Source of the DNA: a virus | Taxonomy: Duplodnaviria; Heunggongvirae; Uroviricota; Caudoviricetes | Direction: 5' to 3' (one strand) | Length of the DNA: 64,000 bases | Virus record (IMG/VR): IMGVR_UViG_3300034093_001947 | Shown here: piece by piece, positions 15,290-37,182 of the stretch | Position numbering within the stretch: position 1 is the stretch's first letter | How the letters are laid out: each line of letters begins with the position of its first letter | Position numbers and translations under genes: made by a program | Notes under the pieces: generated by a model | The model's database searches: none | What the model was told of the DNA's origin: nothing | Seen by the model: only the letters and a program-made list of their open reading frames with translations

Positions 15290-16213
15290 ATGAACTACGG
15301 CTTCGAAAACAATCAATTTTATGTAGAATTCCCAGCATTAACTAGGGTGCCAGGAAACATGCGAGAAGAGTCAGATAGAAGGGCTCGAAAACTTGCAGAA
15401 AATCATCACAAGTTGATTTTAGGAATGAGTTCGGGTGTTGATAGTCAGAGTGTATTACACAGTTTCTTTACTCAAGGCATTCCGCTCGACTGTGTATTTT
15501 ATTATATGCCGGGGTATAATGATATAGAATACGAACAATTGCAATTAGTTAAGAAGAAGTACGGTGTACGCATCGATATTATTGATTTAGATCCGATACA
15601 GTACGAGGAACAAGTAATGAAAATTGCACAGGATCAATGTATCCATCCTGTGCAAGTAATGCAGAGTATTTTTACTAGACTTTTACCTGACGACGCCGAT
15701 GTCATTCAAATGATTCATGATCCATTTGTACATATTACTCCGGACAATAAGTTTTATTTTTATCAAGGATATCACAGTCCCGAGGTAGCGAGAATGCGAT
15801 CAATGGAGTTATTAAAAAGAAAAGGAAAGTATATACCTTACGGAGATCCATCAGAATTTCTTTATAGTATTTTAAATGATGATGTTTATCAATCGGCAAT
15901 GCATACTCATAGATATTTTGACGGAAATGGGCTGTGCAAGGAAAACTTTCACTTAGATAGTGTAGATAGATGGGACTATTATATTAAACCAATAATTTAT
16001 GGAAAGTATTGGAAAGACGAATTATTATACTTCCCAAAGTTTGGCGGATGGGAAAATGTTCCTTTTATGAAAAACGAACCATCTAATCCTGAATTAAAAC
16101 TAACTGTTGGAAATTTGTATAGAAAGACTGCTGTGCTTATTCCTTACTTTGAATTTATTAAAGAATTAAAAAGTTCTAAAGTATCTTTGAAATACTTTCA
16201 GCGACCAGATTAA
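15290..16213 (+). CDS. PP-loop (adenine nucleotide alpha hydrolase-like) protein
   Basis: LGMSSGVDSQ motif. Confidence 0.6.
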   Translation: MNYGFENNQFYVEFPALTRVPGNMREESDRRARKLAENHHKLILGMSSGVDSQSVLHSFFTQGIPLDCVFYYMPGYNDIEYEQLQLVKKKYGVRIDIIDLDPIQYEEQVMKIAQDQCIHPVQVMQSIFTRLLPDDADVIQMIHDPFVHITPDNKFYFYQGYHSPEVARMRSMELLKRKGKYIPYGDPSEFLYSILNDDVYQSAMHTHRYFDGNGLCKENFHLDSVDRWDYYIKPIIYGKYWKDELLYFPKFGGWENVPFMKNEPSNPELKLTVGNLYRKTAVLIPYFEFIKELKSSKVSLKYFQRPD

Positions 16214-16264
16214 CTAGCTTATAGAAAAGTTAACATAGGTTACCAAACTGTTTAAATACGTTAT

Positions 16265-17692
16265 ATGAGAAATATAATATTTTGGAGCGGTGTCTGGCCG
16301 AATTTTACTTACGAAAAACTGCCAACTATGCAGCGTCCAATGGCCGCATATGCGTTAGCTCATTGGATGCGGAAGAATCGATTTCAATGTCAGGTTATAG
16401 ATTTCTTACAACATTTTACTGCTAAAGAAATTATTGAATTTACAGAGCCTTTAATAACTAAAGACACTGTTTGTATTGCACTCACTACAGTATTTTGGAA
16501 CGCAGATAGTTCTTATCCGCCCGGGGCTATTATGATAGCAATACAGTATTTTAAAAAGAAATTTCCAAATCTTCCAATTGTAGGAGGTGGGCCGTACTCT
16601 AACAATTACAAGATGTTAGATCGTGCATTTGTCGGGGAAGGTGAAGACCAATTTCTAAAATGGTGTCAAGAACAGAGTATGGGAGTAGCATTGCCAAATT
16701 CTGTTTTTGATATAACTCAAAACGATCATACATTTCACGAAGATGATTGTATTATGCCCGATGAAGCAGTTCCTATAGAATTAGGTCGAGGGTGTATTTT
16801 TAAGTGCAGTTTCTGTACGTATCCAAATCTAGGTAAATCTAAAGGGTCATATATTAGGAAACCTGAATACTTATTAAATGAAATGCTACGAAACAGAGAT
16901 GTATTTGGAACTACTAACTATGTTTTCTTAGACGATACCTGCAACGAAGATCAAGATAAGATAGCTGAGATTGCTAATATAAACAAACAACTTGATTATA
17001 AAATTAGATGGTCTGGCTTTGTACGTGCAGATTTGATATGGAGCCATGAAAATCACAATCTAATGTTGGAAAGCGGAGTAGACCAGGTATACTTTGGCAT
17101 GGAGAGTTTTCATCCAGAAGCTGCTCGAAAGGTAGGAAAGGGATGGAATGCTAAACACGGAAAAGATTACTTACCTAAATTACACAATGATCTCTGGAAA
17201 AATCAAGTAGGTATCGAAGCAAGTTTTATTTCAGGACTACCTGGAGAAGATATACCCCATCTTAGATCAACAGTAGATTGGATTAAAGAGAATAATTTTA
17301 TAAGAGGATATTTTCGAGGACTTGTCATATTGCCAAAATCTGAGTTTGCAAATAATCCCGAAAAGTTTTTTCTAAAAAAGAAAGCATATTGGAAAAATTC
17401 TGACGATCAATCTGGAGATGCAGAAGTCATGGGGTGGGAAGATACTAGAGACCCCAAAAATAATCACGAACTGCACGAAGCACTATCACACGAGTTTAAT
17501 GATATCTTGCAACCGACTTGGCCTATGACTGGATTTTATACTTCTTCGCTTTATTCATTAGGGTATACTAAGGAAGAAATTAAACAATACGGTTGGAAAG
17601 ATTGGGCTATGTTAGTAATGGCAAGGAAAGATCCTTTTATTTCTACATATAAAGAAAAATTAAAAACAATAATAAATCGAGGATGGAGATGA
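16265..17692 (+). CDS. B12-binding-type radical SAM protein
   Basis: GRGCIFKCSFC; VGGGP...GEGE N-terminal domain; FLDDT; FGMESF. Confidence 0.85.
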   Translation: MRNIIFWSGVWPNFTYEKLPTMQRPMAAYALAHWMRKNRFQCQVIDFLQHFTAKEIIEFTEPLITKDTVCIALTTVFWNADSSYPPGAIMIAIQYFKKKFPNLPIVGGGPYSNNYKMLDRAFVGEGEDQFLKWCQEQSMGVALPNSVFDITQNDHTFHEDDCIMPDEAVPIELGRGCIFKCSFCTYPNLGKSKGSYIRKPEYLLNEMLRNRDVFGTTNYVFLDDTCNEDQDKIAEIANINKQLDYKIRWSGFVRADLIWSHENHNLMLESGVDQVYFGMESFHPEAARKVGKGWNAKHGKDYLPKLHNDLWKNQVGIEASFISGLPGEDIPHLRSTVDWIKENNFIRGYFRGLVILPKSEFANNPEKFFLKKKAYWKNSDDQSGDAEVMGWEDTRDPKNNHELHEALSHEFNDILQPTWPMTGFYTSSLYSLGYTKEEIKQYGWKDWAMLVMARKDPFISTYKEKLKTIINRGWR

Positions 17693-18315
17693 ATTTAAAA
17701 GATATTATACTAATGCCTATTGATTTGCCTAAGTTAAATTTAGATAGACAGAAAGTTTTGGAATACTTTGACGCAAGAAAGCTACCTCATCAAGACTGGG
17801 CTTGGGTAAATTTTAAACCAATGAACAAGCCAATAGACCCGGATCTGCTAAAGTTGTTTCCCGACCTTGATGAAAAATTAAGAGCATTGCCGCTGTTAGA
17901 TTATGAAAATAATGGACATTTTGATTTTAGAGAGCAGATAGTCAATAATAAGCCGCACCAAGATCCAATAGCTAAATCGTTAGCTGATGGAGAATTAGGA
18001 CCCACTGCTTATAAAAATTTAGTAATGCGTGACATGTTAGAAACATTCTATGTGCTGCCAACGTCATCTAATCCCGATATTGTACAATACGATCAAAGAC
18101 CTAGAAACTTATTATCACCTGTGTTTCCTGTACTACCCAATGACACTGATTGGTTTGTATTAAACAACCATGTAGGCTATCATGGATCTTTCATAGCACC
18201 TGCAGAATATAGAAAAATTACCATGTTCATTGCAGGAAGATTAGATACTGATAAACATTTAGAACTTATGTCTAGAAGTATTGAAAAGTACAAAGATTAC
18301 ATTATCTATAATTAA
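17689..18315 (+). CDS. Fe(II)/2OG dioxygenase-fold hypothetical protein
   Basis: KPHQDP...YHGS...KITMFI. Confidence 0.55.
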   Translation: MNLKDIILMPIDLPKLNLDRQKVLEYFDARKLPHQDWAWVNFKPMNKPIDPDLLKLFPDLDEKLRALPLLDYENNGHFDFREQIVNNKPHQDPIAKSLADGELGPTAYKNLVMRDMLETFYVLPTSSNPDIVQYDQRPRNLLSPVFPVLPNDTDWFVLNNHVGYHGSFIAPAEYRKITMFIAGRLDTDKHLELMSRSIEKYKDYIIYN

Positions 18316-35814: not shown

Positions 35815-35815
35815 A

Positions 35816-36547
35816 ATGTCAGAAGTTAAAAACAACTATATCAAAGCCTCATGGGCACGTAGAGCAGAACTTACAGAATTAGTGTATCAACGAACACAGG
35901 GATTCGTACATCGAGGTCCATTTCAAGCAATGAAAATTTTGCACAAGTTTAGCTGGGGCGATGGCGACTGTGCTAGCAAATTACTAGGGTTATATGAATG
36001 TGAACTATTTGAAGACATTGAACGAGTTATTAATCAACCGCACGACCTAATCTTAAACATAGGATGTGCTGAAGGTTACTATGGTATTGGTTTGGCAAAA
36101 AGAACACAGACAAAAACCATAGTGTTTGATGTAAACAAAACTGCTGTGGACATTGCAAGAGAAAATGCTGCCGCCAACGGTGTAAACAAAATTCTATTCA
36201 GTACAGACTGCACTATAGACAACTATAGATCATTCCTTGCTTCGGCTAATAATCCGTTTATCTTTATGGATTGCGAAGGTGCAGAAGAAGAAATACTTGA
36301 CCTCAATGTGATGCCAGAACTAACCAAGACCGCAGTAATGGTTGAAAGTCATGACTGTAATAGGCCTGGCCTAACTGATAAGTTAGTTGCACGATTTGCA
36401 GAAACACACAATATTAAACTGATTAGGCAAGGAAATAAAAATCCCTATATGCCGTTAATTGACGATTTAGATGATTATGATAAAATGTTGCTATGTGTGG
36501 AAGCAAGGCCTAGCACAATGATCTGGTTATACATGTATCCTAAATGA
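35816..36547 (+). CDS. Class I SAM-dependent methyltransferase
   Basis: LNIGCAEGYY motif I; FMDCEG. Confidence 0.75.
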   Translation: MSEVKNNYIKASWARRAELTELVYQRTQGFVHRGPFQAMKILHKFSWGDGDCASKLLGLYECELFEDIERVINQPHDLILNIGCAEGYYGIGLAKRTQTKTIVFDVNKTAVDIARENAAANGVNKILFSTDCTIDNYRSFLASANNPFIFMDCEGAEEEILDLNVMPELTKTAVMVESHDCNRPGLTDKLVARFAETHNIKLIRQGNKNPYMPLIDDLDDYDKMLLCVEARPSTMIWLYMYPK

Positions 36548-37182
36548 AGTACGAAATTTTTAAAGAACCATTTGTCCACATTGTGATAGATGATTTTGTA
36601 CCATGGGTGTACAATTTGCAGATTATCAACGAAGCTTGTAGATTAATTCCTGGAATGATTACTAGCAAGGTCAACAGTAATCAAGGCATTGTTATTAGTC
36701 CCGGCTCGAAGAGCAGTAAGAATATGTGGCTGTTCCAGCAATACGCTGCCCGACCAAACAATTTTCAAATTTCAACTTACCTTGAACAGAGAATTTGGTC
36801 CAACGAAGTTAAGCAGATATTACTTGAAGCAAATGATTCTCTCTTTACTAGTATGTTATATACTGATTCTAGTCAGATGCTAATGAGCAAATATACCCAC
36901 GAAGATCATTACAGTTGGCATAGAGATTATAATCCCACTGCTACAATGAACTATATGTTTGCTAAAGACCCATCTAAATTTACAGGTGGGGATTTTGTGT
37001 TCGGCGATTGGGAAACTAAACAACCTCTTAAAACTATTCAATTTAAAAATAATAGATTAGTCATCTTTCCTAGCAGAGTCTACCACTGTGTAACTCCTGT
37101 AGTGAAAAAAGATAAAAATCCAGAGTACGATAGATTCACTGTTCAATACTGGAGTAAGCTCAAAGAGATCAGAGAAACTTGA
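36544..37182 (+). CDS. 2OG-Fe(II) oxygenase (prolyl-hydroxylase-like)
   Basis: YSWHRD, F.GGDF, LVIFPS...YHCV.PV, RFT. Confidence 0.85.
   Translation: MKYEIFKEPFVHIVIDDFVPWVYNLQIINEACRLIPGMITSKVNSNQGIVISPGSKSSKNMWLFQQYAARPNNFQISTYLEQRIWSNEVKQILLEANDSLFTSMLYTDSSQMLMSKYTHEDHYSWHRDYNPTATMNYMFAKDPSKFTGGDFVFGDWETKQPLKTIQFKNNRLVIFPSRVYHCVTPVVKKDKNPEYDRFTVQYWSKLKEIRET

Follow-up and report, generated by a model that had tools for sequence, protein, structure and literature searches.

A phage gene island combining an acyl carrier protein, desaturases, GNAT-like proteins and radical SAM enzymes: a conserved core, swappable cassettes and a tentative role in acyl tailoring

What might a phage make with an acyl carrier protein (ACP), four desaturases and five radical S-adenosylmethionine (SAM) enzymes encoded side by side? 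The question is raised by positions 15290–37182 of a 64,000-nt stretch of DNA (the window), which represents bases 89200–153199 of a 228,849-bp IMG/VR virus record of the Caudoviricetes (IMGVR_UViG_3300034093_001947; CheckV completeness about 65%). ORF (open reading frame) listing together with Pfam and NCBIfam scans gives 26 intact genes in this island, here numbered g01 to g26. The island is a mosaic, composed of a conserved core and swappable accessory cassettes, and not one fixed 22-kb pathway; the core comprises a GNAT, an ACP, the small protein g14, a desaturase, an AspH-like hydroxylase and a MoaA/Tes-like radical SAM enzyme. As for its function, the reading we favour, and hold tentatively, is that acyl chains are tailored while tethered to the ACP and are then passed to an amine acceptor by GNAT-mediated N-acyl transfer. 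The genes are as follows.

g01, 15290–16213 (+): PP-loop-like ATPase, 307 aa; SSGVDS motif; shares a BLAST cluster with g08; no Pfam match
g02, 16265–17692 (+): B12-type radical SAM enzyme A; PF04055; TIGR04072 over residues 26–363; paralog of g05 and g10
g03, 17683–18315 (+): 2-oxoglutarate (2OG)/AspH-like oxygenase fold, 210 aa; Atlas TM 0.59; hhalign 53%; counterpart in related locus L101 79% identical
g04, 18315–18920 (+): paralog of g03, 201 aa; in the g03 BLAST cluster; HTD...H motif
g05, 18904–20358 (−): B12-type radical SAM enzyme B; PF04055; PF02310 sub-threshold
g06, 20355–21113 (−): desaturase A, SCD/DesC type; PF00487; three His boxes
g07, 21147–21719 (+): GNAT-like partner of desaturase A; ORF opens at TTG 21069, likely start ATG 21147; hhalign 96% to the g16 family
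g08, 21711–22643 (−): Asn-synthetase-like PP-loop ATPase without glutaminase domain; SGGCDS motif; Atlas TM 0.64–0.70 to Asn_synthase clusters
g09, 22624–23505 (−): Rieske non-haem iron oxygenase; PF00355; catalytic domain sub-threshold; motifs complete; weak SxtT/CntA match
g10, 23507–24943 (−): B12-type radical SAM enzyme C; PF04055; TIGR04072 over residues 18–374
g11, 24945–25823 (−): core radical SAM enzyme, MoaA/Tes-like, probably single-cluster, no SPASM; PF04055; AlphaFold2 (AF2) model and Foldseek
g12, 25825–26583 (−): core AspH/LpxO-family hydroxylase; PF05118; Cpz10 is the nearest solved structure
g13, 26576–27316 (−): desaturase B (core); PF00487; SCD1 (4YMK) at E 2.5e-13
g14, 27318–27698 (−): 126-aa protein between ACP and desaturase; kept only in loci L101, L104 and L110; no family match
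g15, 27695–27934 (−): ACP; PF00550; AcpP-like NCBIfam models; GIDSLD motif
g16, 27924–28541 (−): GNAT-fold acyltransferase adjoining the ACP; AF2 pLDDT 91.5; Foldseek to PaiA, SpeG and RimI-type GNATs
g17, 28549–30450 (−): TokK/CysS/KedN5-like cobalamin radical SAM C-methylase, accessory; TokK 7KDX at E 7.9e-61; CysS at E 7e-35; NF033712 at 155 bits
g18, 30447–31259 (−): desaturase C; PF00487
g19, 31250–31903 (−): GNAT-like partner of desaturase C; hhalign 91% to the g16 family
g20, 31896–33119 (−): ATP-grasp ligase, accessory; PF13535 (ATP-grasp_4); weak Ddl and L-amino-acid ligase matches
g21, 33116–33574 (−): FA_hydroxylase-family membrane oxygenase, accessory; PF04116
g22, 33553–34170 (−): second-subfamily GNAT-like protein, first gene of the minus-strand operon; hhalign 96.7%
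g23, 34097–35002 (+): desaturase D, divergent from g22; PF00487; likely start ATG 34196 or 34208; 79% identical in L104
g24, 35119–35814 (+): 231-aa protein, possibly oxygenase-like; weak hhalign link (26%) to an AspH-related family
g25, 35816–36547 (+): class I SAM methyltransferase; PF05175 (MTS) and PF13649
g26, 36544–37182 (+): Fe/2OG oxygenase; PF13640 (2OG-FeII_Oxy_3)

The mosaic structure becomes apparent when the island is compared across viruses. When viral contigs were scanned with g11 or g16 as single proteins, no pattern match emerged, but an alignment-based profile scan with the g11 family succeeded, and its 80 viral loci, together with five others, fell into 48 groups at 85% identity, referred to here as lineages. 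Many loci end at contig edges, and the co-occurrence counts are lower bounds: alongside the g11-family enzyme, an AspH-like gene is found in 41 lineages, a GNAT-like gene in 23, a desaturase in 21, an ACP in 15, a PP-loop gene in 10 and a B12-type radical SAM gene in 8. The radical SAM and AspH genes are adjacent in 41 of the 48, and of the 15 lineages with an ACP, 13 have it no more than two genes away from the radical SAM enzyme. The closest relative is L104, a 17.7-kb metagenome contig in which 21 of the 26 genes follow an unchanged order with 63–87% identity; it is devoid of g17, g20, g21 and g24, and a g01 counterpart is not detectable there. A 349-kb contig (L101/L102) keeps 14 genes at 34–79% identity. 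Independent shuffling of the genes among relatives, a counter-possibility raised in a preliminary description of this DNA, was thus not seen for the core. Another viral island (L005, 1803–13871), which abuts a subtilase and an Mtd-type tail-fibre gene, encodes a g11 homolog at 47% identity and a TokK-like enzyme, besides three other radical SAM enzymes, two AspH-like proteins, three PP-loop proteins of QueC type and a sulfotransferase.

The same description had drawn up an inventory of enzyme classes, and nearly all of it holds. All of its ORFs in this interval are present, and the phage origin is borne out by the 229-kb IMG/VR record and the tail-fibre genes in the window. Matches above curated Pfam cut-offs were obtained for the four desaturases (FA_desaturase in g06, g13, g18 and g23), for five radical SAM proteins (Radical_SAM in g02, g05, g10, g11 and g17) and, in single copy, for the FA hydroxylase (FA_hydroxylase, g21), the ACP (PP-binding, g15), the ATP-grasp ligase (ATP-grasp_4, g20), the Rieske oxygenase (Rieske, g09), the methyltransferase (MTS, g25), and the enzymes g12 (Asp_Arg_Hydrox) and g26 (2OG-FeII_Oxy_3). 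The four radical SAM enzymes described as B12-type correspond to the paralogs g02, g05 and g10, two of which (g02 and g10) align with TIGR04072, and to the TokK-like g17; the one described as MoaA-like is g11, by its Foldseek match to MoaA. Two PP-loop proteins are recovered as well, g08 by its fold and SGGCDS motif and g01 by its BLAST cluster and SSGVDS motif, and the GNAT-like proteins are supported by structure for g16 and by hhalign for g07, g19 and g22. The near-contiguous minus-strand operon from 34170 to 21711 proved to consist of 15 genes that overlap by up to 22 nt or lie at most 7 nt apart. Of the five proteins to which an Fe/2OG fold had been ascribed, four (g03, g04, g12 and g26) retain it, whereas g24 can be called only possibly oxygenase-like. 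Catalytic motifs of the island enzymes are complete at every diagnostic site checked, and ten island proteins have no Pfam match even at E up to 5.

Among these components, the desaturases and their GNAT-like neighbours form the most regular pattern. All four desaturases possess three His boxes and share 30–38% identity, with g13 matching SCD1 at the E value listed above, and each has an ortholog in L104 at 70–87% identity. A fifth desaturase is encoded elsewhere in the same phage record, outside the window. GNAT-like and desaturase genes are neighbours four times, as g07/g06, g19/g18, g22/g23 and, across the ACP and g14, g16/g13; in each of the three phage lineages, g07 has stayed together with desaturase A and g19 with desaturase C, g07 being 82% identical in L104 and 51% in L101. 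The AF2 model of g16 has a pLDDT of 91.5 and matches GNATs in Foldseek at E 8e-10, with PaiA, SpeG, RimI and RimJ as structural neighbours. By hhalign, g07 and g19 are linked to the g16 family (96% and 91%), and g22 (96.7%) to another viral GNAT-like family, which itself has a weak Acetyltransf_1 match. A complex prediction for the g16 and ACP families returned a score of 0.00 and no verdict, and is counted neither way.

The ACP g15 scores 29.9 bits with PF00550, and the attachment serine of its GIDSLD motif is invariant in 17 phage homologs. An ORF for an AcpS-type phosphopantetheinyl transferase (PPTase; 101 aa) is present in the same record, outside the window, where it directly follows a small porin or outer-membrane beta-barrel-like ORF (L016, record 30000–38000; ORFs 3263–3712 and 3772–4077), while in the 349-kb relative the PPTase gene comes right after the core radical SAM enzyme. 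With its invariant serine, a PPTase in the record and an island PPTase in a relative, the ACP looks functional. The record also encodes a FabF-like ketosynthase (E 1.7e-56 to KAS II), about 27 kb upstream of the window. The neighbours of this gene (L015, record 55000–68000; ORFs 4960–9691) are a PfkB kinase, Hsp20, ClpS, a haem oxygenase and two ferredoxin-dependent bilin reductases.

CxxxCxxC is complete in each of the radical SAM enzymes, and Pfam matched a SPASM domain in none of the five. The three enzymes g02, g05 and g10 are mutual paralogs with 29–36% identity, of which g02 and g10 can be aligned, beginning near residue 20, with TIGR04072, a model for B12/radical SAM proteins; the Pfam B12-binding domain gives a sub-threshold match to g05 and g17 and none to g02 or g10. 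The 633-aa g17 matches TokK at E 8e-61 over residues 36–454, spanning the cobalamin-binding and radical SAM domains, and its sequence clearly relates it to the iterative C-methylases TokK and CysS, although its score with the curated KedN5-family model NF033712 (155 bits against a cut-off of 700) makes it a relative and not a member by that model. The best-characterised relatives of these methylases have small-molecule substrates; the native one of CysS is thioester-linked to pantetheine (PMC12846815). Like TokK/ThnK from carbapenem and CysS from cystobactamid biosynthesis (PDB 7KDX and 9N1B), which g17 resembles in the aligned domains and the CxxxCxxC motif, g17 is in a setting that suits pantetheine-linked substrates in that it adjoins a carrier protein; unlike them, it is found in a phage without beta-lactam or NRPS (non-ribosomal peptide synthetase) genes. 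For g11, the AF2 model (pLDDT 84) is nearest in Foldseek to MoaA (TMq 0.65) and to GDGT-MAS (TMq 0.71–0.73), a tetraether lipid synthase that forms C–C bonds, then to SkfB. Invariance is confined to the three CxxxCxxC cysteines; therefore, a single cluster is probably bound.

Several further enzymes could hydroxylate or ligate. The paralogs g03 and g04 adopt a 2OG/AspH-like fold (Atlas TM 0.59 to AspH clusters; hhalign 53% to the AspH family). Among solved structures, Cpz10 comes closest to g12 (E 2e-4); its substrate is a small amino-acyl nucleoside, and the LpxO model scores 20 bits with g12 against a cut-off of 500. The Rieske enzyme g09 contains both CxH...CxxH and DxxHxxxxH motifs, the PP-loop signatures of g08 and g01 are SGGCDS and SSGVDS, and the ATP-grasp enzyme g20 has weak similarity to Ddl and L-amino-acid ligase.

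With regard to its genomic setting, the island is located in a hypervariable block near tail fibres, glycosyltransferases and radical SAM cassettes, as in the host-recognition clusters of T4-like aquatic phages. Its GC content is 0.32–0.34 (window 18000–34000), compared with 0.38–0.43 across most of the remaining window. PHROG matches in the window include a 2161-aa tail fibre (55592–62077) and other proteins of fibres and the virion, as well as a Ro60-like RNA-binding protein encoded just 5′ of the island. Glycosyltransferases are encoded at 37319–39411, with two GT1 genes directly 3′ of the island, and a nucleotide-sugar epimerase lies further 3′. The island DNA occurs near-verbatim in 24 lake-water metagenome runs, the contigs of four runs showing zero differences, which points to a persistent freshwater phage. 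Joints between the island and contigs of four lake metagenomes have short sides (21–31 nt) at motifs shared among paralogs, and are not read as deletions. The GenBank phage collection gave no match by megablast of the whole island or by tblastn of g08, g16 and g17. A Pfam search of the record for the T4 gp23 and T4 portal proteins found no match, and the controls were also blank, rendering that search uninformative.

Motif counts against expectation provide a lead on when the island is expressed. The sites concerned are these.

34187–34194 (−): TATAAATA, T4-type late-promoter consensus, 17 nt 5′ of g22; putative promoter
34187–34194 (−), 55511–55518 and 55563–55570: ATAAATA-type sites

The sequence TATAAATA is strongly depleted, with one copy in 64 kb against 9.2 expected, and that copy stands at the head of the operon. 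The similar AATAAATA is located 21 nt 5′ of the tail-fibre start codon. ATAAATA itself occurs 10 times in the window against 28.9 expected, and eight of the ten copies are just 5′ of co-directional gene starts, including those of the island operon and the tail fibre. These ATAAATA-type sites are probably late promoters, and the motif suggests expression of the island alongside structural genes.

The core is not confined to phages. The g11 family has 1211 proteins at E ≤ 1e-5, with 80 loci in GTDB representative genomes, among which three contexts recur. In predatory bacteria of the Bdellovibrionota, a cassette consists of a 200-aa gene, an AspH gene, a desaturase and a radical SAM enzyme; one such cassette is on a complete 2.9-Mb chromosome, with identities of 39% to g13, 55% to g11 and 48% to g12. 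The cassette shows that also in cells the core functions as one unit. Motifs common to the 200-aa gene and g16 (hhalign E 8e-4, probability 24%) are no more than suggestive of a relationship between the two. In Alphaproteobacteria, at least 11 loci have translationally coupled GNAT, AspH and radical SAM genes in one operon with Imm11 and an RTX/AHH polymorphic toxin of 1000–2600 aa. In Labrenzia alba CECT 7551 (CXTY01000027.1, 6005–16667), for instance, GNAT, AspH/cupin, radical SAM and Imm11 genes are followed by a 2612-aa RTX protein with a faint AHH nuclease match, and the first three genes overlap by 4 nt. No homology was detected between the alphaproteobacterial GNAT and g16 (hhalign E 0.26). 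The third context, in Acidobacteriota, Sphingomonadales and Gammaproteobacteria (L064, L080, L084, L087, L092 and L095), is a conserved unit of four genes, for the radical SAM enzyme, a PF14518 haem-oxygenase-like iron enzyme, an MBOAT and a 340–390-aa protein without a Pfam match. In all three contexts the radical SAM enzyme is accompanied by an iron enzyme that depends on oxygen and by an acyltransferase, be it a GNAT, a g16-like protein or an MBOAT; many further cellular loci of the family have no island homolog nearby. Two contigs assigned to metagenome-assembled genomes, of Neomarinimicrobiota (L065, 335 kb) and Crocinitomicaceae (L097, 33 kb), encode B12 radical SAM, ATP-grasp, g03-like, PP-loop and desaturase proteins, and may be phage contigs binned with cellular ones.

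How does the island relate to characterised systems? In JamA/JamB/JamC, which forms a terminal alkyne, and in the bacterial polyyne clusters cay and pgn, a dedicated ACP adjoins one or more membrane His-box desaturases. The island shares this combination, and its desaturases may accordingly be imagined to act on carrier-bound acyl chains. The phage record differs from those cassettes in encoding neither an ANL-type acyl-ACP synthetase nor a FAAL, and neither a thioesterase nor a rubredoxin was seen in the island, which has instead GNAT-like partners, AspH-like hydroxylases and up to five radical SAM enzymes; its desaturases are likened to SCD1 alone. Aminolipid tailoring by OlsB/OlsC/OlsE and LpxO employs a GNAT-like N-acyltransferase, an AspH/LpxO-family hydroxylase and an FA_hydroxylase-family oxygenase. 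The GNAT-like proteins resemble the first of these in fold, and g12 (PF05118) and g21 (PF04116) match the two hydroxylating enzymes at the family level only, a combination that would suit an N-acyl amino-acid lipid. On the other hand, there is no OlsB-type (PF13444) match among the GNAT-like proteins and no PlsC-type OlsA (PF01553) in the record, and the Ols pathway involves neither desaturases nor radical SAM chemistry.

Phage precedents exist for single elements. The cyanophage desaturase vFAD is a DesC-like delta-9 lipid desaturase with proven activity on C16 lipids (Roitman et al., 2018; PMC5776448), and the main text of that paper makes no mention of an ACP or radical SAM context. The island desaturases are likewise phage-encoded, of SCD/DesC type and provided with three His boxes; whereas vFAD is a single host-like DesC gene, the island has four divergent paralogs together with an ACP, GNATs and radical SAM enzymes, and the genome has a fifth desaturase elsewhere. 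The pelagimyophage host-recognition cluster (PMC7029224) and cyanophage dioxygenase arrays (Iyer et al., 2010; PMC2938197) are comparable in being hypervariable, close to fibres or glycosyltransferases, rich in Fe/2OG and radical SAM genes and subject to cassette turnover. In those reports the genes are listed without units, and an ACP/PPTase/ketosynthase set, GNAT–desaturase pairs and an AspH–radical SAM core with cellular counterparts are not described. Phage DesC-like desaturases (PMC5776448), pelagimyophage radical SAM cassettes (PMC7029224) and cyanophage dioxygenase arrays (PMC2938197) are thus already published; new here are the definition and frequencies of the core, its cellular contexts, the four GNAT–desaturase pairs, the assignment of g17 to TokK/CysS, the PPTase/ketosynthase inventory and the promoter lead. 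Literature searches found no paper on a phage module uniting ACP, GNAT, desaturase, AspH and radical SAM genes, in line with the preliminary description, which could name no characterised phage pathway of this combination; searches on PF05118 with radical SAM, and on jumbo phage with ACP and desaturase, also returned no paper. Carrier-protein-based pathways are not known from phages.

Taken in sequence, the proposed pathway would run as follows. The AcpS-type PPTase of the phage would activate g15, which would be loaded with a fatty-acyl chain that the fatty-acid synthase of the host makes together with the FabF-like ketosynthase of the phage or, alternatively, possibly via the Asn-synthetase-like PP-loop enzymes. 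While tethered or shortly afterwards, the chain would be edited: the four SCD-type membrane desaturases would insert double bonds, the cobalamin radical SAM enzymes, including the TokK/CysS relative g17, would put on C-methyl groups, the AspH/LpxO-like, FA-hydroxylase, Rieske and 2OG enzymes would hydroxylate, and g11 would perform a further radical step. The four GNAT-like proteins, each paired with a desaturase, would then pass the acyl group to an amine acceptor, and the ATP-grasp and PP-loop enzymes may attach amide-linked residues. Expression would coincide with that of the structural genes, i.e., late. What leads us to this scheme is the ACP serine, the PPTase and ketosynthase, the closeness of ACP and PPTase genes to the core radical SAM gene in relatives, the GNAT–desaturase pairs, the SCD1-type desaturases, the tightly packed operon, the relatives of g17 and g11, the synteny with L104, the Bdellovibrionota cassette and the acyltransferase found with the radical SAM enzyme in each recurrent cellular context. 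Gene content, motifs, folds, paralogy, co-conservation and the ACP/PPTase/ketosynthase set are observed, whereas how the ACP is loaded, in what order the steps follow and what accepts the acyl group are inferred, and the scheme as a whole is possible but falls short of being probable.

Several observations weigh against it. The g16 fold matches generic acetyl-CoA GNATs (PaiA, SpeG and RimI) and not enzymes known to use acyl-ACP. No ANL-type acyl-ACP synthetase (PF00501) and no PlsC-type acyltransferase (PF01553) was found in the 229-kb, approximately 65%-complete record, which makes any loading route for the ACP tentative, and no thioesterase was seen inside the island, the record not having been searched for one. 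Only 15 of the 48 viral lineages encode an ACP, and the cellular cassettes lack one, so that the core chemistry is not strictly dependent on a dedicated ACP. Accessory genes are gained and lost among close relatives, AspH-family enzymes and GNATs also modify proteins and small amino-acyl molecules (as with Cpz10), and the substrates considered here for the island enzymes are all putative. As a separate observation, a dienelactone-hydrolase-family alpha/beta hydrolase followed by a ClpP protease is encoded at window 49538–50966; the hydrolase could act as a thioesterase, but its gene is 12 kb off the island.

The preliminary description, which had proposed a tailoring pathway on ACP-bound chains taken from the host, with an unusual lipid as one possible product, is therefore confirmed as an observation and partly supported as an interpretation. 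The genes are indeed co-conserved, but as a core with exchangeable cassettes. Its statement that no ketosynthase is visible is correct for the window and not for the phage, whose own FabF-like enzyme means that acyl chains need not come ready-made from the host. A lipid is only a candidate product, and the homologous cassettes in operons with giant RTX toxins make a protein acceptor as compatible with the data as a membrane lipid.

A protein acceptor is central to the first alternative, in which the AspH-like, radical SAM, GNAT, ATP-grasp and PP-loop enzymes would act on side chains of a large phage protein (tail fibre, virion or secreted), with the ACP and desaturases supplying a lipid anchor or being unrelated. 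AspH enzymes classically hydroxylate Asp and Asn in protein modules that bind calcium, and the GNAT–AspH–radical SAM operons with RTX toxins (at least 11 loci, including the cultured Labrenzia alba) fit this idea; yet no RTX repeat protein is found in the phage record, and the alphaproteobacterial GNAT has no detectable homology to g16. The hypervariable, tail-fibre-proximal position of the island also agrees with it, as do the related phage loci that abut Mtd-type fibres and subtilases, the late-promoter motif, and the structural neighbours RimI and RimJ, which acetylate protein N-termini. Precedents can be seen in the radical SAM cassettes of the pelagimyophage host-recognition cluster (PMC7029224) and in gene neighbourhoods of beta-hydroxylase, sulfotransferase and tail-collar genes, interpreted as peptide modification (PMC2938197). 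However, no large protein recurs beside the core in the 48 viral lineages, the core radical SAM enzyme is devoid of SPASM or RRE-type peptide-binding domains, and the ACP, PPTase, ketosynthase and four desaturases would be unexplained unless the modification is a lipidation; we consider this explanation doubtful, albeit one to be reckoned with. An unlikely alternative would be a loose set of independent auxiliary metabolic genes collected in a hypervariable region, in which the desaturases tune host membrane fluidity like cyanophage vFADs and the other enzymes act on unrelated substrates. Single DesC-like desaturases are established phage genes (PMC5776448), accessory cassettes vary among close relatives, many families occur in only a minority of core-bearing loci, and the island has lower GC than its flanks (0.32–0.34 against 0.38–0.43). 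Such a set is hard to reconcile with 15 genes that overlap or abut within one transcription unit, with a radical SAM–AspH adjacency found in 41 of 48 lineages and again in Bdellovibrionota chromosomes, and with four GNAT–desaturase pairings conserved across lineages; moreover, the desaturases are ancient paralogs (30–38%), each with its own L104 ortholog (70–87%), which argues for distinct retained roles.

Remodelling of envelope glycan or lipid A, in which lipopolysaccharide or capsule would be modified by LpxO-like acyl hydroxylation and radical SAM sugar chemistry together with the adjoining glycosyltransferases, so as to block superinfection, appears improbable. MBOATs, which are partners of this radical SAM family, typically acylate surface polymers; to our knowledge, the acyltransferases acting on lipid A are not GNATs. 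Two GT1 genes directly downstream and the epimerase further on would fit, but glycosyltransferases are not co-conserved with the core across the viral lineages, and there are no sugar-nucleotide enzymes within the island. The LpxO match of g12, cited in favour, is weak, at 20 bits against a cut-off of 500. Modification of the O-chain has been proposed for regions of this kind (PMC7029224). Least probable is a proteusin-type cluster for a ribosomally synthesised and post-translationally modified peptide (RiPP), whose precursor would be matured by B12 radical SAM methylases and hydroxylases. The island resembles polytheonamide-type clusters, which combine B12 radical SAM C-methylases, Fe/2OG hydroxylases and a methyltransferase. 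Radical SAM RiPP models do appear among the low-score NCBIfam matches, but far under their cut-offs, and the RiPP reading was dropped because there is neither a precursor-sized ORF in the island's five intergenic gaps (the largest 136 nt) nor a SPASM domain by Pfam in the five radical SAM enzymes.

A broader and more speculative proposal, which we regard as unlikely in its full form, would join the phage and cellular contexts. The AspH-like hydroxylase, the MoaA/Tes-like radical SAM enzyme and the acyltransferase would constitute an unrecognised maturation system that places a tailor-made acyl group (methyl-branched, unsaturated or hydroxylated) on large secreted or surface proteins, namely RTX-type polymorphic toxins in Alphaproteobacteria, while giant phages would add an ACP, a PPTase and desaturases to lipidate a virion or envelope-targeting protein late in infection.

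What was a vague “island of oxygenases” is now divided into testable units, i.e., a six-gene core, four GNAT–desaturase pairs and their cellular counterparts, and genetics is feasible in two of these counterparts that are culturable or genome-complete, those of Labrenzia alba CECT 7551 and of Bdellovibrionota. In bacteria, the association with operons for RTX polymorphic toxins hints at a step of toxin maturation that is as yet undescribed. If the island does encode a carrier-protein-based pathway, it would be a source of unusual radical SAM and desaturase enzymes, and giant aquatic phages would produce a specialised acylated molecule or a lipidated protein during infection, which would represent a new phage–host chemistry.

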